Of a DNA stretch of 64,000 nt, positions 49,661 to 63,356 are shown one piece after another. The position numbers were made by a program, and so were the translations under genes. The stretch lies in sequence record PX969468.1; one strand, given 5' to 3'. The stretch is from a phage. The notes beneath the pieces are model-generated. The model saw nothing but the letters and a program-made list of their open reading frames with translations. It searched no databases and was not told the DNA's origin. How positions within the stretch are numbered: the first letter of the stretch is position 1; each line of letters opens with the position of its first letter.

Positions 49661-49983
49661 CAGAGATCATCGTTTCAACTGCAGGGTATGTATTCCTGAC
49701 AATCATTGCGCTGGCTATTCTGGTGGCGGTGTATGGATTTGTTATCCTGCCCATTCTTGAGACATTTAGTTTGTGTCGGTGTTGGAGAAAAGCTTACGGT
49801 CCACAACCATGGAAGGACTGGCCCCACCTGGTGCGCTTAGCGTTCTCTTATGCTTACGATCACTCCAGCAGTGCATGCATAACCGGATACCACGCCCACA
49901 ACTGGAGCTGGGAAGGGTTGAGGAAATGGAATGTTACAAAGACCATACCTCTGCGCATGTACAAAGGAAAAAGGAGGGATTGA
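49657..49983 (+). CDS. Small membrane protein (108 aa)
   Basis: N-terminal TM helix (YVFLTIIALAILVAVYGFVILPIL). Confidence 0.45.
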   Translation: MTEIIVSTAGYVFLTIIALAILVAVYGFVILPILETFSLCRCWRKAYGPQPWKDWPHLVRLAFSYAYDHSSSACITGYHAHNWSWEGLRKWNVTKTIPLRMYKGKRRD

Positions 49984-50627
49984 TGGGGATACCTGTTAAA
50001 GACAGAAAAATATGTGGTCGTGGAGTAAACGATTTAAAAGACAAAGTCCCAATGTACCAATCTGTTAATGGTAAGAGAGTACCAGAACCTCACTATGCTA
50101 CATGGAAAGCATTATTCCAGAGGTGCTACGGCGATAACTCAAAGTACCATACAGGTTGTGAAGTTGTAGAAGATTGGTGGTTGTTCTCAGAATTCTGGAA
50201 ATGGATGGATACACAAGAGTGGAAAAGAGACGCTAAGAAGTTCACTCTTGACAAAGACCTGAAAATCCCCGGAAACAGAATATACTCCCCAGAAACATGT
50301 ATGTTTGTTCCACCACAAATAAACACCTTATTTGGCATAAGACAGGCAGCACGAGGGGATTTACCTTTGGGTGTGACACTTAGAAAAGATGTAAACAAGT
50401 ATCTCGTGCATTGTCATCAAGATGGAAAAATTGTTCATGGTGGTCATTTCGATGATCCGCAGATAGCACACAAGGTGTGGCAAGAAATGAAACTTGAGGA
50501 GATGAAGCTTCAAGCTATTAAAAACAAAGATGAGATTTGGCTGTTCGCCATTAAACGTGCAATAACTATCCTTGAGAATGATTTGAAAAATAATAAGGAG
50601 ACTATAACATTGGTGAAATTTATTTAA
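49983..50627 (+). CDS. Homing-endonuclease-associated DNA-binding/HNH-like protein
   Basis: ATG after AAGGAGGG; YATWKALFQRCYG..YHTGCEVVEDWWLFSEFWKWM motif common in phage HNH/AP2-type proteins. Confidence 0.45.
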   Translation: MGIPVKDRKICGRGVNDLKDKVPMYQSVNGKRVPEPHYATWKALFQRCYGDNSKYHTGCEVVEDWWLFSEFWKWMDTQEWKRDAKKFTLDKDLKIPGNRIYSPETCMFVPPQINTLFGIRQAARGDLPLGVTLRKDVNKYLVHCHQDGKIVHGGHFDDPQIAHKVWQEMKLEEMKLQAIKNKDEIWLFAIKRAITILENDLKNNKETITLVKFI

Positions 50628-50639
50628 GATATTTATGGT

Positions 50640-51250
50640 GGTATTTATTTTAAAATTATAAAAATTTTAGGTGATGAGGGAAAATATGTAATGGATTTTC
50701 CCTTATTTATCAGATATTTGCAGATATTTGGAAATCCTTAGAAAATCAGAAAATGGATCGAAAACTAAAATGGATTTTTCAGAGTAGGCGCGACAAGCTG
50801 AATAACTCATCCTATCGTTTGCACCATATTCCAGGCCACCATTATAGATTTCCCACACATGCTAACCTCCCTCTACTAGAACTTCCTCCACTTACCCTTG
50901 ACCTTCTATGGTAACAATCTAACCACTATCTTGAAGTTGCGGTGCAGCTTTCCAGGTACTCGATCTACTTTTCATTTCAGGGCTTGGATTTTCTGAAAAT
51001 TTTTCTCGATAAATTTCTCAGTACTCGATCTGTTTTTCGTTTTCTGAATCGGATTTTCTGGAAATCGTTCCGGATCTAGGCCTGAAATTTTTAGGGACGA
51101 AATCGATTTTTCGTTTTCAGAAATGGATTTTTAAAATTTCTATATGGGAATATTTTAGTGGATACTATTTTATAGGAAATTGTTACGGAGGGTAATTAGC
51201 GTGCTAATTAAATTTATTAAATGCGAGGAGTTCTCATTTAGAATTTTGAA
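50640..51250. repeat. AT-rich non-coding region with short direct repeats (origin-like)
   Basis: AAATGGATTTTTC / GGATTTTCTG copies, tandem CAGATATTTG x2, GTACTCGATCT x2, GATTTTTCGTTTTC x2. Confidence 0.6.
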
Positions 51251-51278
51251 TGATAATCATTCTCGTTTGCAGAATAAC

Positions 51279-51308
51279 GGGCAGGCCCGGTGATTGTCTC
51301 CCGGCCCC
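51279..51308. repeat. Left copy of 25-bp inverted repeat GGCAGGCC(C/T)GGTGATTGTCTCCC
   Basis: Matches reverse complement of 61065-61089 at 23/25 positions; partial third copy at 51419-51437. Confidence 0.7.
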
Positions 51309-51675
51309 TACTGCCCCGGCTTGTTATTATAGTAACACACAGGACAAAGAAAGCAAGAAGTTTTTGCATAAATTTTTAGACGATAATGATAATCGTTCTC
51401 ATTTCATGCAGCGCCCATCCCCGGTGGTTGTCTCCCCCGTCACCGGTGCCTGCCGTCCTTTCGATATGTATATTGTGCCACCTGGCGGGGCCGCTGTCAA
51501 CACTTTTCAAAAAATTTTTTCTAACCTGATGCGCTAACCGCTGCAACCTGGCGGGGCCAGCCTGGCAGGACCTAACTGACCAGGTAGGGGAGAATGAAGG
51601 CTTGCAAACCTGGTGGGCCTATGCTATAGGATAGGTAACAATTGAAGAGGAGGTACAAAAAATGAAAGGTAATAT

Positions 51676-51840
51676 ATGATCCCCCTGGAAAATGTAGCTA
51701 TTAATGACACTGAGGCTATCGCCCTGGTTGAAAAGGCTATGGCGGGAGCGTTGGAACATAAAGAAGAGTACGAAAAAATGATGGTTAACCTGGCAGGGGC
51801 GGCGGCTGGAGAATTCTACCCAAAAAATAATTTTAACTAA
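51676..51840 (+). CDS. Possible small protein (54 aa), below ORF-track cutoff
   Basis: ATG after GGAGG and a 5-codon leader mini-ORF. Confidence 0.3.
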   Translation: MIPLENVAINDTEAIALVEKAMAGALEHKEEYEKMMVNLAGAAAGEFYPKNNFN

Positions 51841-51843
51841 TGG

Positions 51844-51872
51844 TTGACAGCTCGGACAGTTCTTGTTATTCT
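51844..51872 (+). promoter_or_regulatory. sigma70-like early promoter
   Basis: TTGACA, 17-nt spacer, TATTCT. Confidence 0.55.
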
Positions 51873-51925
51873 TATCCTCGCAAGGTGAACAACACCACAC
51901 CAATTAACAGAGAGGATAAAAAATC

Positions 51926-52123
51926 ATGAACGCCTACGGAATTAAAGTACGTCGCAACACTCGCCAGGTGGTCACCAATCAAGTGATTTGCCGGGTGGAT
52001 GTAACCATCAACAACGGGCAAGGCCTTTATAAATTTCGTCGCGGTCATAGCTATACCCTGCAGCAGCTTAACCGTTGCGCCCTGACAAAAGGTCAGATCA
52101 ACCACTGGTTTAATAAAAAATAA
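51926..52123 (+). CDS. Early-region small basic protein (65 aa)
   Basis: RBS AGAGAGG; own promoter. Confidence 0.5.
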   Translation: MNAYGIKVRRNTRQVVTNQVICRVDVTINNGQGLYKFRRGHSYTLQQLNRCALTKGQINHWFNKK

Positions 52124-52136
52124 ATATTGACACGTA

Positions 52137-52165
52137 GTCTGACACAAAATATACTTAAATCACAA
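52137..52165 (+). promoter_or_regulatory. sigma70-like early promoter
   Basis: TTGACA, 17-nt spacer, TATACT. Confidence 0.65.
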
Positions 52166-52187
52166 AAGACACTAAGAGGATAAAATC

Positions 52188-52586
52188 ATGAAAACTACAA
52201 CCTTTAATTTTGACAATGCCGACTTCTCTTTTTCTGATGTTAAGAATTGCCGCCGTGATCGTGGATTTTACAAGGCTTATAATCTGGTTGGCCTAGACGA
52301 TGATAATAATTTGCACGAAGTAGCGGAGATCCGGTACTATGCCGCCGCCAGCGGTAACACTAACTACTGCGTTTTTTGGATACACGACAACAAGAATAAT
52401 AAGTACGGTTATACTGGTGGCAAGGCGAGCGGTCACGGTTATGATAAGGCCAATGCAGCACTTGAGAGCGCGTTAAATGCTATGGGGATCACTGCCAACG
52501 GCTGGATCTATGAAGATGAGTTTTTGTCAGCACTTGCTGCCCACCTGGGGTATAAAAAGCACATTGTGACATGCGCCCACGAATAA
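52188..52586 (+). CDS. Early-region protein (132 aa)
   Basis: RBS AAGAGGA; own promoter. Confidence 0.55.
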   Translation: MKTTTFNFDNADFSFSDVKNCRRDRGFYKAYNLVGLDDDNNLHEVAEIRYYAAASGNTNYCVFWIHDNKNNKYGYTGGKASGHGYDKANAALESALNAMGITANGWIYEDEFLSALAAHLGYKKHIVTCAHE

Positions 52587-52597
52587 AAAAAAAATTA

Positions 52598-52654
52598 TTG
52601 ACACGCTGCAAAATTAAAGTAAACTAGACACAAAAGGCGGGAATGTTTCCCGCC
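52598..52654 (+). promoter_or_regulatory. Early promoter plus 5'-leader GC hairpin
   Basis: TTGACA-N16/17-TAAACT, then GGCGGGAA-TGT-TTCCCGCC hairpin, CA-rich spacer, SD, ATG 52675. Confidence 0.55.
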
Positions 52655-52674
52655 AACACAAAGGAAAAAAGATC

Positions 52675-53070
52675 ATGAATAAGAACGTACGCCGCATCAT
52701 GAACGAACTGGCAAACGATGAAAAAATTATTGATATGCATTTGGTAAACATTTGCCGCCGTTGTGTAACATATAACAACCGCGCCGCAAAAGCGCGTGAG
52801 ATGAACGCAAAAGGCACCTTAAAGCCCTTTCAGGTGGTTGTAAAATCTATAACCAGTGCAGCAGGCCAGGCGCATGACCACAACAACGGGAGCACTAATA
52901 TTGATCCGTCTTACGTAATGAAACGGATCCGGACTTGCAAGAATAAAGAGCAGGTGTATAACGTCATAGATTGGCTGGACTCCCTGGGCGATGTGGTTTA
53001 TAATAGGTTTTCTGCAGCTATCGAGATCCAGCTTGACAGACTGGACGGGAAAGTACTGAAAACTTACTAA
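52675..53070 (+). CDS. Early-region protein (131 aa)
   Basis: RBS AAAGGAAAAAAG; own promoter and leader hairpin. Confidence 0.55.
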   Translation: MNKNVRRIMNELANDEKIIDMHLVNICRRCVTYNNRAAKAREMNAKGTLKPFQVVVKSITSAAGQAHDHNNGSTNIDPSYVMKRIRTCKNKEQVYNVIDWLDSLGDVVYNRFSAAIEIQLDRLDGKVLKTY

Positions 53071-53082
53071 GTTTATTTTTAG

Positions 53083-53119
53083 ATGGCCTTGACGCCAGGG
53101 CCATCAATAAAGTAAACTA
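53083..53119 (+). promoter_or_regulatory. Palindrome-embedded promoter element, copy 1
   Basis: GATGGCC-TTGACGCCAG-GGCCATC with -35 TTGACG in the centre and TAAACT at -10. Confidence 0.6.
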
Positions 53120-53149
53120 ATCCCAGTTAAGCTAAAAGGAGGCTTGAAG

Positions 53150-53269
53150 ATGAGCACTACACGCCAGCACACAAAGGTAACTATTATCGTTTGCATCATT
53201 GGTTATATCCTGGCGCAAATGTTGATGGGTAGCGCCAACGGTGTCGCAAAATTTTTCTTAAACTTTTAA
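53150..53269 (+). CDS. Possible small hydrophobic peptide (39 aa)
   Basis: ATG after AAAAGGAGG immediately downstream of palindromic promoter; TM-like core. Confidence 0.4.
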   Translation: MSTTRQHTKVTIIVCIIGYILAQMLMGSANGVAKFFLNF

Positions 53270-53324
53270 TTGACAAGCTAACTTAGATCGGTATACTAAA
53301 CACATCAACGGGAAAACTTCCCAG
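53270..53324 (+). promoter_or_regulatory. Early promoter plus 5'-leader hairpin
   Basis: TTGACA-N16-TATACT, then GGGAA-AAC-TTCCC hairpin. Confidence 0.6.
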
Positions 53325-53347
53325 AACACACAAAAGGAGAAAACACC

Positions 53348-53689
53348 ATGACCACTATGACCGCCGCAGAAAAAGCTATTCAGATCGCTGCCCTGAAAAA
53401 ACAGATCGCAGACCTTGAGAATAAGATCGATAACTTTGAAATCGACGAGGACAAGTACGACGAAAACTATGATGAATGGTTAGACGAGATCTACGGCGAA
53501 ATTATGATCGGAAACATTTCTTTTCTTCCGTCGCGTATCCTCAAGGAGCTAGATCCTATCGCTTACCGCTGCGGATTTAGCGACTACATCGACAGCCTGG
53601 ATATTGAGGACGATGAAGAATACCAGGAATTACAGACAGAGTTGGAAGAAGCAAAAGAAGAGCTTGCGGAGCTGGAAGAAAACGAGTAA
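53348..53689 (+). CDS. Early-region highly acidic protein (113 aa)
   Basis: RBS AAAGGAGA; Asp/Glu-rich throughout. Confidence 0.55.
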   Translation: MTTMTAAEKAIQIAALKKQIADLENKIDNFEIDEDKYDENYDEWLDEIYGEIMIGNISFLPSRILKELDPIAYRCGFSDYIDSLDIEDDEEYQELQTELEEAKEELAELEENE

Positions 53690-53702
53690 GATTATTTTTA
53701 GA

Positions 53703-53738
53703 TGGCCTTGACTCCAGGGCCATCAATAAAGTAAACTT
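53703..53738 (+). promoter_or_regulatory. Palindrome-embedded promoter element, copy 2
   Basis: GATGGCC-TTGACTCCAG-GGCCATC then ATAAAGTAAACT. Confidence 0.6.
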
Positions 53739-53778
53739 TATACTGTTAACACTGAACTAATGCATAGGAGTTAAAACC

Positions 53779-54024
53779 ATGGCAGCACTAATCACTAAAT
53801 ATTACGCCCCTACCAACACCAAAAGCGCCCGTATCATGGTAAAAGGCTTCGGACGTAAAAAGGTTTACACCTGGGATTATGCCTTAGACATGGAAGACAA
53901 CTACACCAACGCGATGACAGATTTTATTAATGAGCTGAACACGCGGATCTTGACAAATTATAAAATTACCGATATTGCCTATATAGGGGAAGGCGGGATC
54001 TGTTTTGTCGGTATCGTCAAATAA
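53779..54024 (+). CDS. Early-region protein (81 aa)
   Basis: RBS TAGGAG. Confidence 0.5.
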   Translation: MAALITKYYAPTNTKSARIMVKGFGRKKVYTWDYALDMEDNYTNAMTDFINELNTRILTNYKITDIAYIGEGGICFVGIVK

Positions 54025-54100
54025 ACTGTTTTTTCGGTGGTCCTGGTAGCAGGGCCATCTATAAAGATAGTTTATCAATACAATGAAAGGAGAAAGTAAC

Positions 54101-54454
54101 ATGATCAGTGGGGCAAGTTTTATTATTGGCGCTATTGCTACGGCTTTAATTGTAAACAAGATCCAATCTAAAAACGAAAAAGAGAGCAACGCGCTCACAG
54201 AATACCCATTTTGGATATTCAACGACAATGAAGACTACATTATCAAGTACAAGAATGAGAAGGGCGACCAGGTAACACCGCGACCGATCCCGGCCTACAA
54301 GATGCAAGAAACACTATACCGCCTAAAGGCTGGAGGCGCAAAAATCGTAGACTTTTGGGGATATGATTGCAAGGATCAGGAGGTTATAAAACGGCGTATC
54401 CGGGCTATTCAGGCCAATATTGAAGTTAGCAAGGGGGGAATATATGAAGATTAA
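54101..54454 (+). CDS. Early-region membrane protein (117 aa)
   Basis: ATG after AAAGGAGAAAG; N-terminal TM helix. Confidence 0.5.
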   Translation: MISGASFIIGAIATALIVNKIQSKNEKESNALTEYPFWIFNDNEDYIIKYKNEKGDQVTPRPIPAYKMQETLYRLKAGGAKIVDFWGYDCKDQEVIKRRIRAIQANIEVSKGGIYED

Positions 54455-54641
54455 TTTTGAGAAGATTGTAAAGCGATCTCATGATTCCGAAGAGCTGCCG
54501 GAACGCCGCCAGCGTAACAATAAACTGAATAAGCCAAAAAGATTTGGGAAGATCTGGCGGAATCATTATGATCGTAAATTGCCGGGCCTCCTTTTGGAAC
54601 GTGAACGGCAGGCGGAACGATACCGCCATAAAGACAAATAA
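54444..54641 (+). CDS. Early-region small basic protein (65 aa)
   Basis: ATG after AAGGGGGGAA; Arg/Lys-rich. Confidence 0.45.
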   Translation: MKINFEKIVKRSHDSEELPERRQRNNKLNKPKRFGKIWRNHYDRKLPGLLLERERQAERYRHKDK

Positions 54642-54659
54642 CAACCAACGCCCCGCCAT

Positions 54660-54689
54660 CGTGCGGGGCTTTTTATTTCTACCCTACGA
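54660..54689 (+). terminator. Intrinsic terminator
   Basis: CCCCGC-CATCGT-GCGGGG followed by CTTTTTATTT. Confidence 0.7.
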
Positions 54690-54884
54690 ATAGCGCCCCT
54701 GGTTGGCCCCACAACGCCAAAAAGGCCCCACCTATGCAATCGCCCCCCTTTAACCTGAAAACATCGCTTAGGGCCGTTTTATGGCGTTAAAAATATCATT
54801 GACAGTGATTTTATTTAAAGCTTGACATCTAAAATATTCTAGATATACTAATCACATCAAAGCGAGAAGTAAGGAGTAAACGCC

Positions 54885-55145
54885 ATGCGTAAATTAAAAA
54901 ATTTTGATAAAGTTGATATTGTCCTGAATAATTTTTACTACTGCAATAACAAGGCCGTTTGGTGGCGTGATAGTTCCACCGATAAAGTCAAGGCGCGCTT
55001 TCTCCAGGGGCACTGGCAAGGCCGCCCAGTGATTAAAATCATGGGGCAATTGGTAGCGTTTAAAAATTGCCGCCGTGTTGATGACGTTGAAGAGATTTTA
55101 AACATTTTGCGCCACAATAATTTAAAAAATAGTGTTGACAAGTAA
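54885..55145 (+). CDS. Early-region protein (86 aa)
   Basis: RBS AAGGAG; promoter-like TTGACA-N16-TATACT at 54827-54856. Confidence 0.5.
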   Translation: MRKLKNFDKVDIVLNNFYYCNNKAVWWRDSSTDKVKARFLQGHWQGRPVIKIMGQLVAFKNCRRVDDVEEILNILRHNNLKNSVDK

Positions 55146-55191
55146 ATCTCAATAAGTATAATTAAAAACACAGGCGGGAAAACTTCCCGCC
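55135..55191 (+). promoter_or_regulatory. Early promoter (overlapping upstream stop) plus leader hairpin
   Basis: TTGACA-N16-TATAAT, then GGCGGGAA-AAC-TTCCCGCC hairpin. Confidence 0.65.
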
Positions 55192-55219
55192 ACTAACAAA
55201 GAAAACAGGAGAAAATATC

Positions 55220-55843
55220 ATGACCACCGTTAACATTACCACAGGTTACAATTTAGCTTTCGACGTGCTGACCGACGAACAAAAAGAAAAAGCCGTGGAA
55301 ATGGTCCGCGAAAGAGAAGAACACAGCGGGGATAACTTTTTTGCAGAAAGTGTAATTGAGTACTATAAAGAATATATCTTTCCAGAGTACGGCCTTGAAG
55401 ATACCGATGTACATTGGTCAGGCTTTTGGTGCCAGGGTGACGGCGCGTCAATCAGTGCGGAAAACGTGGATTTAGAAAAATTCTTGCGTAAAGTCAAGTC
55501 TCTGACTAAATTCCGCTCAATTCGTCACTTGTTCGGCACAATGCACGATGGCGAGTTATCCGCAAGTGTTGAGCGTGATCCATATAGCCGCTATAGTCAC
55601 GAAAACACTGTAAACGGATACATCGATACTACATGGCTAGACCTGACCACCAAACAAGAAAACAAAGTGGAAGATCTGGAAGAGCTGATCACCGAGACGG
55701 TACGGGAGTTATCCCGCAAGGTTTACGTAGACCTGGAGGAAGCCTATCTTGAACAATTCACCGCCGAAAACTTGATCGGCCTTATCGAGGCCAATGATTG
55801 GCGGTTTGATGTCGATGAACACGGTGAGATGACTTTTTCATAA
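55220..55843 (+). CDS. Early-region acidic protein (207 aa)
   Basis: RBS CAGGAGAAAA; own promoter and leader hairpin. Confidence 0.55.
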   Translation: MTTVNITTGYNLAFDVLTDEQKEKAVEMVREREEHSGDNFFAESVIEYYKEYIFPEYGLEDTDVHWSGFWCQGDGASISAENVDLEKFLRKVKSLTKFRSIRHLFGTMHDGELSASVERDPYSRYSHENTVNGYIDTTWLDLTTKQENKVEDLEELITETVRELSRKVYVDLEEAYLEQFTAENLIGLIEANDWRFDVDEHGEMTFS

Positions 55844-55931
55844 ATAAAGTGTTGCAATAACCTAAAAACCTGCTATATTAAAACTCAAGGGGCAAGACGT
55901 TTGCCCCACACAAAACAAAGAGGTAAACATT

Positions 55932-56312
55932 ATGAAAAACACTACTAAAGCTATTGACACCGTTATGTTTAACCTGGTTACATTCCGTGAAGATATGAAA
56001 GATCTTCCACGTGAAACAGTGTGCGATCACATTGAAAACTATCGCAAACTAATCAAAGAGTTGCCTTTAAAACGTGACCAGTATGCGGCTAACGCTATGC
56101 TTAACGCCATGATCAAAAAGATGATTCAGTGTGATTTAACTCTGGCCTATGATTATGCAGGTGGTCGTTTTGCAGTATACAATCAGCCCGTGCCTGGTAT
56201 GAGCACCACCGAAGAATTGCACGCGTTAAATCTGAAACAAGATGTATGGGATAACATGCCCCGCGTGGTGGTGTGGGCAGAAAGCGGAAAGATTTACGGC
56301 GATAATTTTTAA
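55932..56312 (+). CDS. Early-region protein (126 aa)
   Basis: promoter TTGCAA-N16-TATATT upstream, hairpin GGGGCAA..TTGCCCC, RBS AGAGG. Confidence 0.55.
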   Translation: MKNTTKAIDTVMFNLVTFREDMKDLPRETVCDHIENYRKLIKELPLKRDQYAANAMLNAMIKKMIQCDLTLAYDYAGGRFAVYNQPVPGMSTTEELHALNLKQDVWDNMPRVVVWAESGKIYGDNF

Positions 56313-56376
56313 TCAGGTAACAGGCGGCATATTTGCCGCCTTATTGTTAAACAGAACTGCAAAAGAGGTACATAGA

Positions 56377-56748
56377 ATGGAATTTATTATTTTGGCTGTA
56401 GTAGTTGCCTTGTTCAACGCCTGGATCGCTGGCAAGATAGGTAGATCCGCTTTTCTATGGTTTGTTATATCTATTTTCCTGGGAGTGGTTGCAACTATTG
56501 TATTGGTTATCCTTGCAATTGTTGACAAGGGCGATAATAGAAAGGGTAAAGTGTTTTCCGACCTGTATGACGCACAAACGTTTGTCAACGCCTATTATAG
56601 TGATCTTCCAGTCTCCCTACGCTGCAGCCTGGCACAACAGGTTTTTGATGAGGCTAAAACCAGAGACCAAGCCCATGAGATATGTTTAACTGAAGCGGAT
56701 CGCCTATTTGAGAGGAATAGAAAATATGTGGACCAGCCGTTTAAATAA
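56377..56748 (+). CDS. Early-region membrane protein (123 aa)
   Basis: ATG after AGAGG; two predicted TM helices; leader hairpin GGCGGCA-TATT-TGCCGCC. Confidence 0.5.
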   Translation: MEFIILAVVVALFNAWIAGKIGRSAFLWFVISIFLGVVATIVLVILAIVDKGDNRKGKVFSDLYDAQTFVNAYYSDLPVSLRCSLAQQVFDEAKTRDQAHEICLTEADRLFERNRKYVDQPFK

Positions 56749-56947
56749 CGCCACGTTAATTAATCCCTTTAGTGAAGATTTGAAGCCAGCCGCCTGGCGT
56801 GACGGATTCAATAACGAACGCTTTATTTTCAGGCCTGATCTTGAGGAATTTTATAACAATGGATCGAACAACAGCGGAGATAATTTTTCTTGTGGTGTGC
56901 GTGGTGATAGGACTCCTGGGGGCCATTGTAAACCACGTCACCACTAA
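56726..56947 (+). CDS. Possible small protein (73 aa); alternative overlapping frame also possible
   Basis: ATG after GAGAGG; overlaps 56859-56984 frame that would encode a TM peptide. Confidence 0.3.
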   Translation: MWTSRLNNATLINPFSEDLKPAAWRDGFNNERFIFRPDLEEFYNNGSNNSGDNFSCGVRGDRTPGGHCKPRHH

Positions 56948-56967
56948 CAGGAGGGAAGGGGGAGACG

Positions 56968-57087
56968 ATGACAACCAAGGATAAGCCATGCGCTGATAAG
57001 GTGCGCCGTGTTATGGTATGGCTTGAGATTATCGCCCTTGAAATATTGTTAGGCGTAGGGATGTACTTTATCGCTGTAAGTAACTAA
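56968..57087 (+). CDS. Possible small membrane peptide (39 aa)
   Basis: ATG after AGGAGGGAAGGGGGA; hydrophobic core; terminator follows. Confidence 0.35.
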   Translation: MTTKDKPCADKVRRVMVWLEIIALEILLGVGMYFIAVSN

Positions 57088-57091
57088 GAGC

Positions 57092-57125
57092 GGCCCCCGA
57101 TCATGGGGGCCTATCTTTTAAAAAA
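57092..57125 (+). terminator. Intrinsic terminator
   Basis: GGCCCCC-GATCAT-GGGGGCC followed by TATCTTTTAAAAAATTTTTC. Confidence 0.7.
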
Positions 57126-57225
57126 TTTTTCTTCCGGGGTGTTGCAATCCGGTCCGGAATGTGGATAATAACAATCAACGGGGAGCTAATCCCCACCACC
57201 ACAAAAACCAGAAAGGAGAAACAAA

Positions 57226-57426
57226 ATGAGCAACAATATCCGCGTTATTAACTTCAAAAAAGAAGAAAAAATTGCCGTGCTGATTGACGGTCAAGAAATC
57301 TTCAAGGGCGACTATGAAGATCATCAAACGGCGATTAGTATCACTCGCGTGATTGGTTATCATAATTTCTACCCCCAAGGCGCTGAGGCAGCAGTTAAAC
57401 GAATCAAAGAGATTGTAGGCCTGTAA
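57226..57426 (+). CDS. Early-region protein (66 aa)
   Basis: promoter TTGCAA-N17-GATAAT upstream, hairpin GGGGA..TCCCC, RBS AAGGAGA. Confidence 0.5.
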   Translation: MSNNIRVINFKKEEKIAVLIDGQEIFKGDYEDHQTAISITRVIGYHNFYPQGAEAAVKRIKEIVGL

Positions 57427-57438
57427 AATTTATTTTTA

Positions 57439-57475
57439 GATGGCCTTGACTTCAGGGCCATCGATAAAGTAAATT
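57439..57475 (+). promoter_or_regulatory. Palindrome-embedded promoter element, copy 3
   Basis: GATGGCC-TTGACTTCAG-GGCCATC then GATAAAGTAAATT. Confidence 0.6.
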
Positions 57476-57510
57476 TAAACCCTGTTAAAATACCACGCAG
57501 TTAACAAGGA

Positions 57511-57819
57511 GTGATAGACATGTTTATCCAGGCTAATAATCTTTATTTCTTTGATGGTCAGATCGTAGATGGTGTGGAAGTGGAGATCACCGGGTGCCCT
57601 GGCGGTCAGGCTATGACTTTTCGGAATAATGCCTTTGATGATTCTCATATCGTTATGAGAATGGAAGTTACGAAGCTGGACGACAAGAAAACACTTATTG
57701 ACTATTCTGTGAAAGATCATCCAGACTACCGCATGATCCATGGTGATTTGTGCATTGTTGACCGTGACAAGGTGGGCGGCATTGTGATCGCTATTGTGAA
57801 CGATGTTTTCTCAAACTAA
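57511..57819 (+). CDS. Early-region protein (102 aa)
   Basis: RBS AAGGAG. Confidence 0.5.
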   Translation: MIDMFIQANNLYFFDGQIVDGVEVEITGCPGGQAMTFRNNAFDDSHIVMRMEVTKLDDKKTLIDYSVKDHPDYRMIHGDLCIVDRDKVGGIVIAIVNDVFSN

Positions 57820-57836
57820 TTTCAGCAGGCGATTTT

Positions 57837-58187
57837 ATGAAAGTCAAACTATATTACCTTAATGAGCTTAACCCCCTTGCCCAGGTCCGCGCCCTAGCTA
57901 ATACCTTGATTTGTGAGAAATCTGTATATTGTGTTGAGCTTAACGCCATGCGTGAACGTCTCAAAGGTGGTTACTTTGACATCCATGCTGCAATCAACGG
58001 CCTGAATATGGAATTTATACGCTTACGTAACAGCCGCCGGAATCTGGCAAGAATGGAACAAGATCCGGCCCACCTTCGTAAGCTGGTTATTGAAAATCAT
58101 CTGATGTTTAATGCCGAGGGTGATTATTACCATTTTCACCGCAAACGCTGGTACCGTGGCGGCAATACAGGCAAGAATGCAAAATAA
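57837..58187 (+). CDS. Early-region protein (116 aa)
   Basis: ORF; weak RBS. Confidence 0.45.
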   Translation: MKVKLYYLNELNPLAQVRALANTLICEKSVYCVELNAMRERLKGGYFDIHAAINGLNMEFIRLRNSRRNLARMEQDPAHLRKLVIENHLMFNAEGDYYHFHRKRWYRGGNTGKNAK

Positions 58188-58222
58188 GGCCCCTAGCAGG
58201 GCCTGCAGCAATATAATCACAT

Positions 58223-58255
58223 AAAGGCCATGCGGTTGCATGGCCTTTATTATTT
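58223..58255 (+). terminator. Intrinsic terminator
   Basis: AAAGGCCATGC-GGTT-GCATGGCCTTT followed by ATTATTTTGG. Confidence 0.7.
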
Positions 58256-58389
58256 TGGCGTTACAACGGCATACGGGGCGCTTAAAAAATTTTTAAAGAA
58301 GTACTTGCATCATTCCCGACAATATGGATAATAAGAGTTGTCGAGGGGGAGGCCCCCAATCGTTGACCAGATAGATAGGAGTTAAAATC

Positions 58390-58674
58390 ATGGCTATTGT
58401 TACCGCTGGCGATGTAGTAGAAATGGAAGCAAAATACTTAAAAGCGGGTATGCACATCCTACGGAATGATCAAGAGTTATTATTAACGATGGTTGACTAT
58501 AATCACGGCCAGGATTATCCAAGCATCGACTACTTTTTTGAGTATGTTGATGAAGAGTTGAAAGAGGATGAGGCCTATTGCGGTGAGTTCTGCAACTTCT
58601 TTTGTCCTGATGAGGTTGTAAAGGTTATTTATCAACCTGGCGTAGCTTTCCCGCTGCACGCTATCAATAAATAA
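58390..58674 (+). CDS. Early-region acidic protein (94 aa)
   Basis: promoter TTGCAT-N17-GATAAT upstream, hairpin GGGGG-AGG-CCCCC, RBS TAGGAG. Confidence 0.5.
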   Translation: MAIVTAGDVVEMEAKYLKAGMHILRNDQELLLTMVDYNHGQDYPSIDYFFEYVDEELKEDEAYCGEFCNFFCPDEVVKVIYQPGVAFPLHAINK

Positions 58675-58729
58675 ACCTGGCGGGGCCGAAAAGGCCCCCA
58701 ATTATGAAAATAAAGAGAGGCAAATCATC

Positions 58730-58963
58730 ATGATGGAACAAATTAAACGCGCCGAGGCTATTAATGGCAACGTGATCTATTTTGTCAGCAAAAACGAAAA
58801 AGGCGTACCATATGCGGCAGTAATAGTACAACCTGACGGCGATTATTGGTTTACTGTGTACGGCACTTATTCTTTTGGGCGTCCAGTGCATGATAAAATT
58901 TTGAAAGTAGCGAACCCTACCGGGAAGAATATCACAGCAGAAAAATTTTTTGAAAATAGTTGA
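58730..58963 (+). CDS. Early-region protein (77 aa)
   Basis: RBS AGAGAGG. Confidence 0.5.
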   Translation: MMEQIKRAEAINGNVIYFVSKNEKGVPYAAVIVQPDGDYWFTVYGTYSFGRPVHDKILKVANPTGKNITAEKFFENS

Positions 58964-59038
58964 CATGACCATATAAGACTGTAATATATAAATCAAAGGG
59001 GGCAACGAACCCCACCAACTACAAAGAGGATAAAAATC

Positions 59039-59218
59039 ATGGCTATTATTGCAAAGACTGAGATCGTAGGCTTAGATTCTATTCTCCTCGCATATGAGGA
59101 AGCTATAGAAATGTATGTGGTTTCCTATGGTGAGTATATCCGTGAATATAAATCTATTGATCTGGCTTTTGAATGTTATATCCGCCAGGTTAATAAAGCG
59201 TACGATGATTATCGTTAA
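59039..59218 (+). CDS. Possible early-region protein (59 aa), below ORF-track cutoff
   Basis: promoter TTGACA-N16-TAATAT at 58968, leader hairpin, RBS AGAGGA. Confidence 0.4.
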   Translation: MAIIAKTEIVGLDSILLAYEEAIEMYVVSYGEYIREYKSIDLAFECYIRQVNKAYDDYR

Positions 59219-59224
59219 AATAGT

Positions 59225-59253
59225 TTGACAACAGCCATCTTACAAAGCATAAT
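59225..59253 (+). promoter_or_regulatory. sigma70-like early promoter
   Basis: TTGACA, 17-nt spacer, CATAAT; followed by GGCGG..CCGCC leader hairpin. Confidence 0.6.
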
Positions 59254-59305
59254 ACATAAGGCGGTGGAATGGTCCGCCACCTGGAACAAAGAAGAGGTAA
59301 ACACC

Positions 59306-59551
59306 ATGAAAAGCAATAAAGGTTATAACGGTTACAAAAACAAAACTCATTGGAATGTAAGCCTTTGGATTAATAACGATGAGTCATTGTACCGGTTGGC
59401 CCAAGGCTTTATTAACGCCAATGCTAATCGTAATGATGCGGCGCGGGATATGATGCTTTTTCTGGAGCTAACCGGACAAGATAAGACCCCGGACGGCTTC
59501 AAGTACAGCACTACGGCGATCCGTGCCGCGATGGTTGGAATGAAACACTAA
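59306..59551 (+). CDS. Early-region protein (81 aa)
   Basis: ATG after AGAAGAGG; track ORF start 59225 lies in promoter. Confidence 0.5.
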   Translation: MKSNKGYNGYKNKTHWNVSLWINNDESLYRLAQGFINANANRNDAARDMMLFLELTGQDKTPDGFKYSTTAIRAAMVGMKH

Positions 59552-59628
59552 AAGCACATAGCTGCCTTACCCTGGGGCTGTGGTAGCGGCCCCATGAATA
59601 AGGTTACTAACAGAAGAGAATAAACACC

Positions 59629-59733
59629 ATGAAACAGAAATTAATCGATGCAGTGATCTTGGTTATTGCCCTGGGTATTGGCCTGATTGCAACCATGTCT
59701 AATATGATCTTGTCTTCCAACGGTATCGGGTGA
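59629..59733 (+). CDS. Possible small membrane peptide (34 aa)
   Basis: ATG after AGAAGAG; hydrophobic core. Confidence 0.3.
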   Translation: MKQKLIDAVILVIALGIGLIATMSNMILSSNGIG

Positions 59734-59742
59734 GGTTGGCAA

Positions 59743-59958
59743 ATGATCACTAACAAAACAGGCAAAACGGAATTTTTACGCAACTTACAGATCGGCAAGC
59801 CTGAGATCTGGTACTGCACTAAAACACCGCGTGACGAAATGAAAGACTTCACCGCCACGCTGCAACGGGTAAAGATATCTATCACGCAGAAAAAGGCCTT
59901 ACTAGTGGTGGAAGGGGAGATCCCCCAAACCGTTGTTATAGTTGAGCGTACAGCATAG
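59743..59958 (+). CDS. Early-region protein (71 aa)
   Basis: RBS GAGGTTGG. Confidence 0.45.
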   Translation: MITNKTGKTEFLRNLQIGKPEIWYCTKTPRDEMKDFTATLQRVKISITQKKALLVVEGEIPQTVVIVERTA

Positions 59959-60049
59959 TTTAATTTATACAGATACCTGAAAATTAACCAACAAAGCATA
60001 AACAGGCGGTTACCGCCGCCTTAAACGTAGCAGAAAGAGGATAGACACA

Positions 60050-60334
60050 ATGAAAAAGATGATCGCAGTGGTTACCCTGGTTGTTGGACTTAATGCGCCT
60101 GTAATGGCTAAAGAGCTGGCAAAAGAGGTTAATCTAACGGATATTCATGCCGTCAATCAAATCGGGGTTACTTATCGCTTATGCCTTGCCGCTAAAACTT
60201 TTAAGGACGGCACAACAGAGTACTACGGATTCGAGGGTATCCGGTGCGGTGAGCTTGCTCGCGACCTTAAGGAAGATCCAGACCTGGAGGATCTGCCCAT
60301 AACCGTGAACGGGAAAACTTACGTGAACCGTTAA
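60050..60334 (+). CDS. Early-region secreted protein (94 aa)
   Basis: signal-peptide-like N-terminus (MKKMIAVVTLVVGLNAPVMA); RBS AGAGGA; leader hairpin GGCGG-TTA-CCGCC. Confidence 0.5.
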   Translation: MKKMIAVVTLVVGLNAPVMAKELAKEVNLTDIHAVNQIGVTYRLCLAAKTFKDGTTEYYGFEGIRCGELARDLKEDPDLEDLPITVNGKTYVNR

Positions 60335-60336
60335 CC

Positions 60337-60471
60337 ATGAGAAAGATAATTATTACCATGGGGATCGTGGCGGCAATGTTGGCGATCTTTCCCTTTATGG
60401 TTAGGTATGTGCTGATTAATGTTGTCCTGGTAGTCAGCGATCTGGTGTTATATATTAACTCATTGTTTTAG
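60337..60471 (+). CDS. Possible small membrane peptide (44 aa)
   Basis: ATG 2 nt after upstream stop; hydrophobic. Confidence 0.3.
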   Translation: MRKIIITMGIVAAMLAIFPFMVRYVLINVVLVVSDLVLYINSLF

Positions 60472-60479
60472 GCGCGATA

Positions 60480-60671
60480 ATGACAGCGGAAGAAGTTAAA
60501 AAAGTACTGGCGGTACTGCGTTATCATAATCATTGCAAGGTGAAGAATGATCCTGATTATCTTGATTCATCCCTTGAAGAGGATACACTACAAGCCATAA
60601 GCAACATGCAAGAATTGCTTAAGCGTATGACAGAGAAAAACCGACCGGACTACATAGGGGGTAAAATATGA
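60480..60671 (+). CDS. Early-region protein (63 aa)
   Basis: ORF. Confidence 0.4.
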   Translation: MTAEEVKKVLAVLRYHNHCKVKNDPDYLDSSLEEDTLQAISNMQELLKRMTEKNRPDYIGGKI

Positions 60672-60979
60672 TCGCTATTACGCCAACCGTTTTAGATTGG
60701 TATCGGCAACGCATAGCGCCTCCGCTGGCTATCTTCAAAGATGCGGAAGCAAAACAACGCCGGATCTCAATACATGAGATCATCAACCTTAACGCTGGAG
60801 GCACACCATACCGCCCAGGACCTGGCCGTGAGATGGACAATACATTGGCGATCCTGAAGATACGCCGTAAACGGTCCTCCCTTACGCTGGATTCATTACA
60901 CACAATGCAGTCTCCGTTCCAGGTGACTGGGAAACGGATCGCCAGGTCCTGGACAAAGGCCAATGACCGGACCGTATAA
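60668..60979 (+). CDS. Early-region protein (103 aa)
   Basis: RBS AGGGGG; ATGA overlap with upstream gene. Confidence 0.45.
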   Translation: MIAITPTVLDWYRQRIAPPLAIFKDAEAKQRRISIHEIINLNAGGTPYRPGPGREMDNTLAILKIRRKRSSLTLDSLHTMQSPFQVTGKRIARSWTKANDRTV

Positions 60980-61064
60980 ATAAAAAGTGTTTTGGTACTG
61001 ATTTTGGGGTTGACTTGTTCGGCCCCTTTTGCTATTCTTATTAAACGGGCGGCACTTGGGAACA

Positions 61065-61089
61065 GGGGGAGACAATCACCAGGCCTGCC
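61065..61089. repeat. Right copy (inverted) of 25-bp repeat GGCAGGCC(C/T)GGTGATTGTCTCCC
   Basis: GGGGGAGACAATCACCAGGCCTGCC is the reverse complement of the 51279-51308 core. Confidence 0.7.
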
Positions 61090-61197
61090 TGTCATATAAG
61101 AACTATAAAAACCGTTGACATCTGCCAGGGGGTGGGGTAACATTTATCTTGAAGGGGCAAAGGTGCCCACACAACAACCAGAAGAGAGGAAAACACT

Positions 61198-61470
61198 ATG
61201 TCAAGCTGGATTAATCAAGAAGTCGAATCACGTTTTAATGCTATTTGGGATCTCATCGAAAAAGAAGACGGCACATCAAGCCCCTACCTCAACAATTTGG
61301 AATTCCATTTTGTGGAAGCGATGAACGCAGAACATGATCACGAAGGTGGTGCGGACGAGTTCGCTAAAGGGTATGGCTTCAATAATGCCAACGAAATGAT
61401 CGAGGCGGTTGTACTCCAGGCTGAGGAAGATTATCAATTAAAAACGCTTGAATTCTGCCGCCGTAAGTAA
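61198..61470 (+). CDS. Early-region acidic protein (90 aa)
   Basis: promoter TTGACA upstream, leader hairpin GGGCA-AAGG-TGCCC, RBS AGAGAGGAAAA. Confidence 0.5.
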   Translation: MSSWINQEVESRFNAIWDLIEKEDGTSSPYLNNLEFHFVEAMNAEHDHEGGADEFAKGYGFNNANEMIEAVVLQAEEDYQLKTLEFCRRK

Positions 61471-62403: not shown

Positions 62404-63020
62404 GTCTGTATTTCTCCTACCACAAACGGCCCAGCCTGGCAAGTGGAATAATTGACTAGCCATCAATCCCACACACTGTACAAATATACATGGAAAATAA
62501 CTATTGCATAATCTTTCATTGTGTGGTAGCAGGGACATTTTTACCCGTTTTCTCTCCCAAAAGTGCACGTAATGCCGCTATTGCACAAATTTTAACCTGA
62601 TGCACATCTCCAATATCTTGTCAACAACTAAAAATCTTTATAAGTCATACACTTACACAACATCGAAAGCGTGTCCTACGCGAAAAATCGAGTATAACTA
62701 TAGCCGCCAAATCTCAGAATTCACGTACGCACGCCATTCTATAGCCTGCAAAGTATTTATTCCAACCACAGAATAACGGAATAGTCAATACCTGCATAAA
62801 ATAATTATTCGTGTAAACTGCATAACATAAATCCGCTCAGGTGTCAACATTTTTCGTAAACAGTCCGAAATTATCACGATGAGTTATCATAAACAAAGAA
62901 ATCTTTAGTCGTCTAATGTTTACTGTACATTACTATACTGACTGGAATCATTAGATGACTAAGAGAAAGATAAGGAATAATTAACAATGTAAGTATTTTA
63001 CCTGCAACAATAAGGCAACT

Positions 63021-63040
63021 ATGCAAACGAATGGCATGGC
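63021..63040. repeat. 20-bp direct repeat, copy 1
   Basis: ATGCAAACGAATGGCATGGC; second copy at 63325-63344 with one mismatch. Confidence 0.7.
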
Positions 63041-63053
63041 GCGACGGAGTCGC

Positions 63054-63205
63054 GACATAATATAAAAGCAGTAACAATCACCCCCGTGATAGTTTTTCTG
63101 CAATCTATTATTCAGATCATAGTTGCCTTGTATCCAGTTAATCATGACATAATAAGCAAGGCAACTATAGATCTGATAATAGTTGCCCTGCTTTTATATT
63201 ATGTC
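63054..63205. repeat. Perfect 18-bp inverted repeat pair enclosing AAGGCAACTAT sites
   Basis: GACATAATATAAAAGCAG (63054-63071) and CTGCTTTTATATTATGTC (63188-63205); four AAGGCAACTAT-like copies between 63011 and 63190 in both orientations. Confidence 0.75.
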
Positions 63206-63256
63206 ATAGAAACGCCCGAAGGGGTGACCTAGTCACCTGGCATAGCCAGCGAAAGA

Positions 63257-63320: not shown

Positions 63321-63324
63321 TTTC

Positions 63325-63344: not shown

Positions 63345-63356
63345 TTATCATATCTG

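Follow-up and report, generated by a model that had tools for sequence, protein, structure and literature searches.

Genomic Context of the Inverted Repeat

The window, a 64,000-nucleotide stretch of phage DNA, belongs to a Vequintavirus (rV5-like) genome which shares 98.7% identity with phage A6-1. A repeat search detected two inverted arms of 29 nt (51274–51302 and 61067–61095), which are 90% complementary and have 9764 nt between them, occupied largely by a block of small early genes. The 17-nt core GGGAGACAAYCACCRGG is present in three copies in the window versus 0.12 expected. When the core was written as GGGAGACAATCACCGGG and up to three mismatches were allowed, three matches per 64 kb were again found versus 0.12 expected, and none of 100 shuffles reached three. 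The perfectly identical stretch between copies is only 14–23 bp long. The repeat is confirmed as real and non-random.

Most of what the first-pass annotation had described at these positions was recovered. The two 23-mers that it quoted are inverted, with 22 of 23 positions complementary; the right one lies exactly at 61067–61089 and the left one at 51280–51302, 1 base off the earlier coordinates. The partial third copy exists at 51420–51438 (1–2 bases off), and both local stems are present (GGGCAG 51279–51284 with CTGCCC 51311–51316 on the left, ACAGG 61062–61066 with CCTGT 61088–61092 on the right). On the other hand, the statement that the repeat flanks the small-gene cluster almost exactly is only approximately correct: the left edge of the cluster is at 51663, and past the right copy there are four further small plus-strand genes, to ~62.78 kb.

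The three copies, designated L2 and L1 (left) and R (right), and the features around them are as follows.

50946–51131: iteron-like region downstream of the leftward modules; three repeats of ~65–74 bp with GATCGAGTAC and A/T tracts
51246–51264: Fur-box-like palindrome TTGAATGATAATCATTCTC downstream of L1; 15/19, inner 7-1-7 GAATGAT-A-ATCATTC
51279–51316, minus strand: predicted L1 hairpin, holding the left repeat arm; core GAGACAATCACC at 51300–51289
51326–51356, minus strand: predicted L1 promoter; -35 TTGCTT, spacer 16 nt, TGtTACTAT overlapping TATAAT
51382–51400: Fur-box-like palindrome GATAATGATAATCGTTCTC downstream of L2; 17/19 to the classical Fur consensus
51408–51453, minus strand: predicted L2 hairpin; core GAGACAACCACC at 51434–51423; MFE -20.1 kcal/mol, z -1.6
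51472–51500, minus strand: predicted L2 promoter; -35 TTGACA, spacer 17 nt, extended -10 TGgCACAAT
61010–61038, plus strand: predicted R promoter; -35 TTGACT, spacer 17 nt, extended -10 TGcTATTCT
61045–61092, plus strand: predicted R hairpin, holding the right repeat arm; core GAGACAATCACC at 61069–61080; MFE -18.1, z -2.0
61115–61143, plus strand: second predicted promoter past R; TTGACA-17-TAACAT
61198–61470, plus strand: first gene downstream of R; 90 aa, PHROG 7287
63841–63989: second non-coding region, to the right of the early block; four more Fur-like boxes

Each Copy Follows a Predicted Promoter

A sigma-70-type promoter was predicted 27–37 nt upstream of every core in the window, always on the GGGAGACAA strand. 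The L2 promoter, which is preceded by the A/T tract AAAAAATTTTTTGAAAAGTG, matches the consensus at 10 of 12 positions and carries the TG (score 11.5; 37 nt from the -10 end to the core). The L1 promoter scores 8 here versus 12 in L130 and L137a (28 nt from the -10 end to the core), and related clades have TTGACA-16-TATTAT at this position. The -35 element of the R promoter sits within a terminator-like hairpin (61006–61026) of the preceding gene. The search for terminator-like sites gave none between R and the gene at 61198–61470, and R would therefore make up the 5' portion of a long leader.

The same arrangement was observed in the 26 modules examined from this and other genomes, all of which have the promoter on the motif strand. 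The mean promoter score is 9.7 on this strand versus 7.0 in the opposite direction, the motif strand being the better one in 23 of 26, and the -10 hexamer ends 27–31 nt ahead of the motif in 22. In FFH2-type relatives the DNA upstream of R is unrelated, yet a promoter (TTGCAA-16-TGtTATACT) is found at the same distance. The early block contains many promoters, and promoter–terminator composites are abundant in it; only three promoters carry the motif. Two leftward and one rightward predicted early units thus leave the small-gene block, which is why the copies look inverted at a distance of ~9.8 kb.

Conservation across Phages

The first-pass annotation had named a blastn comparison with related phages as a check, and conserved islands were indeed found at both modules. 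The left island (51246–51304) comprises the downstream box of L1 and half of its hairpin and the right one spans 61027–61080; both are present in Phapecoctavirus, Certrevirus, Seunavirus, Mydovirus, Klebsiella phages, and one Aeromonas phage, with unalignable flanks. The motif hairpin occurs in 2–3 copies per genome. In every genus examined the order is promoter, G-rich hairpin, A/T-rich palindromes, 3–4 GATC-bearing iterons, and CAAATATC repeats, and the iteron-like region is kept in all of them. Motif and Fur-like box, used as a single pattern, matched 13 of 13 IMG/VR contigs of 84–153 kb and 15 metagenome contigs, mostly of 136–150 kb; in 185,579 bacterial species genomes the only match was a 4-kb MAG contig.

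Evidence for a Proposed RNA Hairpin

In at least six rV5-like genera the 12-nt core shows little or no variation, whereas the closing stem drifts and covaries. In an alignment from which the variable internal loop had been cut out by hand, 87.5% of the closing-stem cells are paired versus 20–57% after sliding the partners, and one pair position is AU in eight sequences, GC in five, and GU in three; the sequences share ancestry, so these counts are not independent. On the GGGAGACAA strand G·U cells outnumber A·C cells (16 vs 6), and the paired cells are 119 versus 109 between the two strands. The excess of G·U over A·C favors an RNA on the GGGAGACAA strand. Transcription units sharing a cis element, or structured RNA, were among the readings of the first-pass annotation, and this suggestion is supported by the same-strand promoter at every copy and the covarying closing stem.

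Thermodynamic support for the predicted hairpin is weak. Folding of single sequences yielded z-scores between +0.07 and -2.8, no consensus structure emerged when RNAalifold was run on a plain MAFFT alignment, and comparison of MFE values did not tell the two strands apart. The L1 hairpin has the stems GGGCAG/CUGCCC and CCGG/CCGG, and the stem register varies between clades. The apical part may be drawn as a GACAA pentaloop closed by an A-U pair where W is U, a closing pair which is gone where W is A or C. At the Rfam gathering threshold the window has a single match, to a group I intron at a different place, and permissive Rfam scans of both regions returned only chance-level matches (E at least 0.4). 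Neither a description of the promoter–hairpin module in the literature searched nor an Rfam family for it was found.

Fur-Like Boxes Downstream of the Motif

The Fur box of the enterobacterial iron regulon is the 19-bp GATAATGATAATCATTATC, which is also read as 7-1-7 tGATAATnATTATCa. As a criterion for a Fur operator we used a match to the 19-bp consensus, which is equal to at least three NATWAT hexamers. In most modules 1–5 Fur-box-like palindromes were detected, beginning ~25 nt past the motif, and both left copies of the window belong to these modules (boxes at 51382–51400 and 51246–51264; 0.00 expected by chance). In the window phage no Fur box follows the hairpin of R. The 7-1-7 pattern has 11 matches in the window versus 1.4 expected. 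Boxes of relatives match at 18/19 and 17/19, and across modules the match to the consensus is 15–18/19.

The boxes, which are arrayed with hexamer periodicity, are concentrated in the two non-coding regions on either side of the early block in every genus examined, with ~6–14 predicted boxes per genome. Clusters equivalent to that at 63841–63989 were found in PcCB7V, CR3, KaOmega, SSE121, and ukendt, and include boxes only 1–2 mismatches from the 19-mer. Phages with conserved boxes infect Escherichia, Klebsiella, Cronobacter, Pectobacterium, Salmonella, Proteus, and Aeromonas, which are hosts sharing the enterobacterial Fur consensus. The idea of protein-binding boundary sites, raised by the first-pass annotation, receives indirect support only: Fur-like palindromes stand beside L2 and L1 and are clustered in the two bounding regions, but they are sequences separate from the repeat itself.

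The palindromes share the consensus of enterobacterial Fur boxes and are candidate operators; their setting is different. In classical Fur repression the operator lies over the promoter, whereas the boxes here are located downstream of the conserved promoters, at about +60 to +150, without overlapping the -35 or -10 elements. An opposite-strand promoter (TTGAAT-18-CAGAAT) overlaps the boxes in the window, but its -10 varies, reading CGGAAT in L109, L134, and L135. Unlike members of the Fur regulon, the boxes belong to a virulent phage and lie in its non-coding DNA, with no iron-related gene adjacent. In the literature searched, phage Fur boxes were described only upstream of the sit operon in temperate lambdoid phages (PMC6969025).

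Alternative Explanations

Recombination or inversion sites had also been suggested in the first-pass annotation, and from the gene content and the genomes of relatives we largely rejected a 9.8-kb inversion segment. The arms do bracket a gene block, as the short flanking inverted repeats of Hin/Gin/Cin-type systems do, and the L–R spacing is retained at 9.4–10.6 kb in Phapecoctavirus and Certrevirus. However, none of the ten largest ORFs within or near the block matched a serine or tyrosine recombinase in Pfam and PHROGs scans, the only functional match being an HNH-endonuclease-like protein. No inverted isomers were seen among 66 related genomes, which are collinear over at least 80% of 50800–61400 (the best ones in one piece), and the genes inside and outside the block are all on the same strand. 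In addition, Seunavirus SSE121 and Mydovirus Mydo carry two copies in direct orientation. Identity is also limited to 14–23 bp, and site-specific inversion or homologous recombination flipping the block is extremely improbable. A different use of the DNA, in which GAGACAAWCACC would be a duplex operator located at about +22 to +35 of the three early promoters and recognized by a protein of phage or host origin, is unlikely. Such a site might shut off or pause early transcription, the hairpin potential being incidental. An invariant 12-nt core amid drifting surroundings, a fixed promoter-to-motif distance, and the weak thermodynamic evidence of structure are consistent with it; the motif also resembles a Fur half-site (GACAATCA vs GATAATCA), and the right copy of ukendt is GATAATCACC. 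The flanking stems, however, vary by compensatory and G·U-type changes instead of being kept as half-sites, and a duplex DNA site would not yield the strand-specific bias of G·U over A·C. Moreover, the motif lacks symmetry, and a candidate for the protein that would bind it was not found.

For the left modules alone, it is conceivable, if quite unlikely, that L2 and L1 are origin-activating or primer promoters, whose leftward transcripts would cross the A/T-rich palindromes and prime or open an origin at the iterons (50946–51131), with the hairpin as part of the primer RNA. The conserved order from promoter to CAAATATC repeats agrees with this, as do the confinement of GATCGAGTAC to the iteron-like region in the window and the lack of a leftward ORF or terminator after the left modules of the window phage. 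T4 oriF/oriG and T7 phi1.1A/B, the T7 primary origin, are transcription-activated phage origins; the left copies resemble them in having a promoter that fires into an A/T-rich element beside repeats in a non-coding region. In contrast to those, no mapped origin is known in the rV5-like group, and R, like the second copies in SSE121 and Mydo, leads into genes with no such iterons. No initiator protein was found, the adjacent 284-aa ORF being HNH-endonuclease-like, and skew analysis of rV5 gave no origin signal in the corresponding region (PMC3606486). We also regard as very unlikely that the copies are remnants of mobile promoter cassettes spread by recombination, with promoter function only, similar to the PeSL cassettes of T4-type phages (PMC2839356; PMC4122927), promoter–stem-loop composites whose shuffling is documented (PMC2839356). 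PeSLs join a strong early sigma-70 promoter to a stem-loop and are dispersed between small ORFs of a hyperplastic region, and mosaic junctions occur at the cassettes. Similarly, the early block is full of promoter–terminator composites, and a mosaic junction falls exactly at the R promoter, whose -35 is inside a terminator hairpin. But PeSL stem-loops are terminators upstream of or overlapping the promoter, in many cassettes, whereas the hairpin described here is downstream of the promoter and has an invariant loop sequence. Its restriction to three of many early promoters also disagrees with mobile cassettes, and the retention of motif and Fur-box partner across genera amid unalignable flanks argues for selection on the leader itself.

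A Proposed Promoter–Leader Hairpin Module Coupled to Fur-Like Operators

The reading we prefer, with modest confidence, is that the repeat is a conserved promoter–leader hairpin module coupled to Fur-like operators in rV5-like phages. Each module would consist of an early sigma-70 promoter and a hairpin of ~45–50 nt, beginning at or very near the predicted 5' end of the transcript and displaying the invariant GAGACAAWCACC within or next to its apical loop; a Fur-box-like array would, in most modules, start ~25 nt past the motif. The tandem L2 and L1 would fire leftward from the left edge of the block into the non-coding iteron region, and R rightward near its right edge. Both the leader RNA and its start sites are predictions, and we infer the function of the module. 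As a 5'-terminal leader the hairpin might offer its conserved loop as a docking site for a factor that governs what becomes of the transcribing polymerase or how stable the RNA is; alternatively, it might accumulate as a small stable RNA. This leader-RNA reading gives no account of the invariance of the 12-nt motif. Host Fur bound just downstream could make outward transcription, or a local nucleoprotein state, responsive to iron.

A tentative and rather doubtful extension is that rV5-like phages read or manipulate the iron status of the host, through predicted Fur operator arrays and the invariant-loop hairpin acting together. The hairpin would then represent a new class of phage leader RNA, either a nut/put-like factor-docking or polymerase-modifying element or a stable decoy RNA. 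The arrays in the two bounding non-coding regions would switch outward early transcription in response to iron or, after genome amplification, might serve as a Fur sponge. Such a sponge, if it exists, would de-repress iron uptake for the iron-dependent ribonucleotide reductases of the phage.

GACAA is the loop sequence of P22 boxB. The boxB of nut has a 5-bp stem and a GNRA-like pentaloop, and the GACAA drawing of the rV5-like element fails where W is A or C. For boxA (CGCUCUUUA-like, at most one mismatch) there are 15 matches in the window, none of them in 51200–51520 or 61000–61100, and a crude composition scan detected no plausible early ORF for an N-like protein with an N-terminal Arg-rich stretch. 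The put RNA of HK022 is ~70 nt long with two stem-loops and works on RNA polymerase in cis, needing no protein factors; in comparison, the rV5-like element is one compound predicted hairpin and has no Rfam match. It also differs from nut and put in that its host genome is a large virulent myovirus and that Fur-like boxes come after it. The lambdoid nutL/nutR, the boxA–boxB RNAs of N antitermination, and HK022 putL/putR, which act on the transcribing polymerase, are among the nearest counterparts: these pairs are short structured RNAs just past divergent early promoters and look inverted about a central region, and the copies described here lie downstream of divergent early promoters, two reading leftward and one rightward.

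Promoter-Linked Repeat Copies in the Window

A repeat search in the window recovered the inverted pair reported in the first-pass annotation and extended its arms to 29 nt (51274-51302 / 61067-61095, 90% complementarity). The left arm had been described accurately, with coordinates shifted by 1 base; the partial third copy is also present, at 51420-51438, 1-2 bases from where it had been placed, and the small local stems are as described. A pattern search with a 17-nt core, allowing up to 3 mismatches, found three sites in the 64-kb window versus 0.12 expected, a number reached in 0 of 100 dinucleotide shuffles of the window.

51286-51302, minus strand, first left copy (L1)
51420-51436, minus strand, second left copy (L2)
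61067-61083, plus strand, right copy (R)

The region shares 98.7% identity with Escherichia phage A6-1 and 92-98% with many Vequintavirus (rV5-like) genomes. From ~49 kb to 62.8 kb, all credible genes are small and lie on the plus strand; the small genes of the block come with sigma-70-like promoters and terminators of their own, and none has an assigned function. Two non-coding regions border this block, the second of which separates the plus-strand unit from a converging minus-strand unit, based on the annotation of phage MaxTheCat.

50630-51650, NC1, which holds both left copies
~62780 to past the window end, NC2, ~2.5 kb by the MaxTheCat annotation

On the strand that reads GGGAGACAA (the motif strand), a sigma-70-type promoter was found shortly upstream of each copy.

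61010-61038, plus strand, R promoter, TTGACT-17-TGcTATTCT
51500-51472, minus strand, L2 promoter, TTGACA-17-TGgCACAAT
51356-51326, minus strand, L1 promoter, TTGCTT-16-TGtTACTAT/TATAAT

Promoters were scored in 26 modules from the window and related phages and compared with the best promoter from the opposite side. The mean score was 9.7 on the motif strand versus 7.0 in the opposite direction, with the motif-strand promoter scoring higher in 23 of the 26 modules, and the distance from the end of the -10 hexamer to the motif is 27-31 nt in 22 of them. In FFH2-type Vequintaviruses, unrelated DNA has been substituted upstream of R, and a TTGCAA-16-TGtTATACT promoter is found at an unchanged distance. 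The arrangement appears inverted because the transcription directions differ: L2 and L1 point left, out of the block, and R points right. Transcripts are predicted to start near 51465 and 51320 (minus strand) and near 61045 (plus strand).

A mosaic junction was observed exactly at the R promoter (window 60985-61030 compared with sequences L139-L141 of relatives). In the FFH2-type genomes, the upstream gene and the terminator/-35 hairpin were exchanged for unrelated ones, while the -10 hexamer and leader of R were retained, which resembles a PeSL-like modular exchange. A 51-nt repeat family (53068-53118, 53687-53737, 54022-54072, and 57425-57475) forms composite terminator-promoter cassettes separating small genes, in which the -35 hexamer of an early promoter sits in the hairpin loop (GATGGCCTTGACGCCAGGGCCATC). 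PeSL cassettes, described in T4-type phages (PMC2839356), are among the closest systems and resemble these surrounding composites more than the motif.

Distribution of the Module in Related Phages

Outside Vequintavirus, blastn matches to the left region were limited to a short island with 72-88% identity, and the right region also gave an island.

51246-51304, left island in Certrevirus, Seunavirus, and an Aeromonas phage
51208-51357, left island in Phapecoctavirus
61027-61080, right island

The same module could be read in Phapecoctavirus ukendt, Certrevirus (PcCB7V, CR3, and KaOmega), Seunavirus SSE121, Mydovirus Mydo, Aeromonas phage PhAER-3, and contigs from IMG/VR and metagenomes. Its order is a promoter, a hairpin with GAGACAAWCACC, and, in most modules (R of the window being an exception), aATGAGAATgATTCTCATt-type palindromes. 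An earlier IMG/VR pattern with 14 specified bases was too unspecific (120 mostly chance matches). A combined pattern (the motif, a gap of 18-45 nt, and AATGNTTNTCATT) was found in 13 IMG/VR contigs, all 84-153 kb in length, and in 15 metagenome contigs, mostly of 136-150 kb. A search of 185,579 bacterial and archaeal species genomes gave a single match, in a 4-kb phage-looking contig of a metagenome-assembled genome, and the left module had no homology match in E. coli genomes. Given this rarity in bacterial genomes and the lack of an E. coli match, the sequence comparisons indicate that the module is specific to the rV5-like phage group and was not taken from a host promoter.

The inverted layout of left and right copies, 9.4-10.6 kb apart, is retained in Vequintavirus, Phapecoctavirus, and Certrevirus. 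In SSE121 and Mydo, the second copy is in direct orientation within the NC2-equivalent region and has its own promoter upstream. These observations bear on one option raised in the first-pass annotation, inversion or recombination sites, which we consider wrong: the larger ORFs yielded no recombinase, relatives align collinearly over both arms, two genera carry direct copies, and the identical stretch is short.

The leftward unit of Seunavirus and Mydovirus begins with a small, conserved leftward ORF (~61 aa, MENVNVVTSETMVTLFTWE...), which has no counterpart in Vequintavirus.

~2150-2340 of L006 (SSE121), minus strand, ~61-aa ORF
1868-2053 of L007 (Mydo), minus strand, ~61-aa ORF

Evidence for a Proposed Structured Leader RNA

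Folding analysis revealed that every copy can form a hairpin enclosing the motif. Single-sequence energies were only weakly better than those of shuffles (z-scores from +0.07 to -2.8), and RNAalifold found no consensus structure in a plain MAFFT alignment because MAFFT misaligned the 5' stem strands. The summed number of pairs enclosing the motif was 190 versus 142 ± 17 with shuffled flanks, which is only suggestive. Minimum free energy divided the choice of strand 15 versus 11, and G·U versus A·C counts in the closing stem were more informative.

For covariation, 17 distinct left-type modules were aligned on sequence anchors. In this ungapped alignment of related sequences, from which the variable internal loop was cut out by hand, 87.5% of cells in an 8-bp closing stem were paired, versus 20-57% when the partners were slid by 1-3 columns. 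One closing-stem pair occurs as AU (8), GC (5), and GU (3), and two others switch between GC and GU. Read on the GGGAGACAA strand, the closing stem has 16 G·U and 6 A·C cells (119/136 paired); on the opposite strand these counts are swapped and 109/136 cells are paired. The right-type stem behaves likewise, GGCAGGCA pairing with UGCCUGUC in FFH2 and with UGCCUGCU in HeinrichReichert. Covariation and promoters together favor, with moderate confidence, an RNA made from the GGGAGACAA strand whose 5' end would lie at or adjoin the closing stem; the relatedness of the sequences and the hand-curated alignment keep this short of proof.

The finding is a real, conserved regulatory module, and of the options raised at first pass, that of a shared cis element or structured RNA was the right one, as promoter linkage and covarying stems indicate. 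It is apparently undescribed. Rfam scans at gathering and permissive thresholds gave no family for it, a tRNA/tmRNA scan gave no match, and searches of the literature on Vequintavirus transcriptomes, PVP-SE1, and phage Fur boxes did not turn it up. We lean slightly toward the hairpin being a 5'-leader RNA on outward-directed early transcripts; any specific downstream effect is less probable. The 12-nt motif itself is invariant or nearly so. Conserved loops of this kind are usually contact sites for a protein or another nucleic acid, and the most likely mechanism would be that the loop docks a factor. A stable GAGACAAUCACC-carrying species of ~50-70 nt, if present, would suggest that the hairpin serves as an sRNA or decoy.

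Several other readings of the hairpin were considered. The nut/put elements of lambdoid phages are among the closest systems: their placement logic is the same, and some copies allow a GACAA pentaloop to be drawn. A nut-type element was nevertheless rejected: no boxA was found, a crude composition scan gave no N-like protein, and copies with A or C at the variable position lose the pentaloop closure. An intrinsic terminator is also improbable, as none was called on either strand and the hairpin tails are U-poor. A pseudoknot between the loop and the Fur-box RNA would use 5-7 complementary bases; it was dropped because the variable loop position does not covary. With regard to CRISPR-repeat mimicry, comparison with type I-E and I-F repeats gave no convincing match. 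A coding reading is offered by ORF 51250-51537 (plus strand, 95 aa), which spans both left modules and which the annotations of some relatives list as a "hypothetical protein". Its start lies inside a Fur-like box, it has premature stops in a close relative (L133), and in all other genera examined it is broken by stops and not conserved. Because of this start and these interruptions, it is probably a mis-annotation and not a gene.

Fur-Like Boxes in NC1 and NC2

Fur is the iron-sensing repressor of the host. Two boxes in NC1 match the classical Fur consensus at a level for which 0.00 matches are expected by chance in the window.

51382-51400, Fur-like box, GATAATGATAATCGTTCTC, 17/19 to consensus
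51246-51264, Fur-like box, 15/19 to consensus

With a 7-1-7 Fur pattern and up to 2 mismatches, 11 sites were found in the window versus 1.4 expected, concentrated at 51.25-51.40 kb and 63.84-63.99 kb. The equivalents of NC1 and NC2 hold clusters of Fur-like boxes in every relative examined. NC2 of PcCB7V contains ~9 boxes in 800 bp (10690-11450 of its sequence L004), the best being 18/19 (GATAATGAGAATCATTATC) and 17/19 to consensus; small GC-rich hairpins flank each box in this array, the densest observed in these phages.

In most modules, the first Fur-like box lies ~25 nt past the motif; in the right copies of CR3 and KaOmega it lies ~50 nt past, and downstream of R in the window no such box was found. 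Fur operators are among the closest systems in sequence and differ in placement: with the boxes located downstream of them, the conserved promoters would not be subject to classical promoter occlusion. An opposite-strand promoter, TTGAAT-18-CAGAAT, overlaps the boxes in the window and is not conserved in relatives. Fur could act as a roadblock, through convergent-promoter interference, or by being titrated by replicated genomes, and the leader hairpin would be physically coupled to the putative Fur operators.

No report of Fur boxes in the rV5-like phage group was found in the literature searched, where the only phage Fur boxes were upstream of the sit operon in temperate lambdoid phages (PMC6969025). 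What the rV5 genome paper records here is limited to a "non-coding" box and predicted promoters (PMC3606486).

The small conserved regulatory module and the dense Fur-operator-like arrays are located in the two large non-coding regions on either side of the early host-takeover genes. Should the Fur link prove real, these phages would offer a clear example of virulent phages that tie their early program to a metal-sensing regulator of the host, and the outcome of infection would be predicted to depend on iron supply, which is relevant to the gut and infected tissue. The hairpin may represent a new RNA family, one with a simple, testable phenotype. rV5-like phages (Vequintavirinae and Stephanstirmvirinae) are common coliphages with a broad host range and are used widely in therapy and biocontrol, and to our knowledge their regulation is almost unstudied.

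Other Elements in NC1, NC2, and Their Surroundings

Downstream of the leftward modules, NC1 (50630-51250) has an architecture conserved in all genera (equivalents in L003-L009, sequences of relatives). It consists of 3-4 repeats of ~65-75 bp with (C)GATCGAG(T/A)(A/C)CC and AAAAATTTTTT tracts, followed by CAAATATC repeats adjoining the stop of the preceding gene; exact GATCGAGTAC occurs in the window only at 50956 and 51021. This part resembles a replication-origin-type region or another site of nucleoprotein assembly.

Some relatives carry a second promoter-driven element of ~95 nt, which is strongly conserved, lies immediately upstream of the hairpin module with the same orientation, and reads ...GAGGAGACGCCACCCCACGGCGAAAAGGCGGGGCTAACGTACCGG...GGAAGGTGGATCGCCGGTAGTTCG. 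It is absent from the window, has no Rfam match, and is a candidate new phage ncRNA.

~1890-1990 of L005 (CR3), minus strand, ~95-nt element, also in L003, L006, L007, and L008

NC2 (62780-64000 and beyond) is a non-coding stretch of >2 kb where transcription units converge, with the following elements.

within 62780-64000, GTAAAC(A/T)GT repeats
63054-63071 / 63188-63205, perfect 18-nt inverted repeat
63455-63545, five AAAGTGTCA repeats
63509-63480, minus strand, strong leftward promoter
63841-63989, four Fur-like boxes

Two further features lie to the left of these regions. The 284-aa ORF matches the C-terminal part of PHROG 953 and has no Pfam match; the intron is placed in the replication/nucleotide-metabolism part of the genome.

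49773-50627, plus strand, 284-aa ORF directly left of NC1, PHROG 953 (HNH endonuclease), E 1e-64
40820-41055, plus strand, group I intron, Rfam RF00028, 64.7 bits
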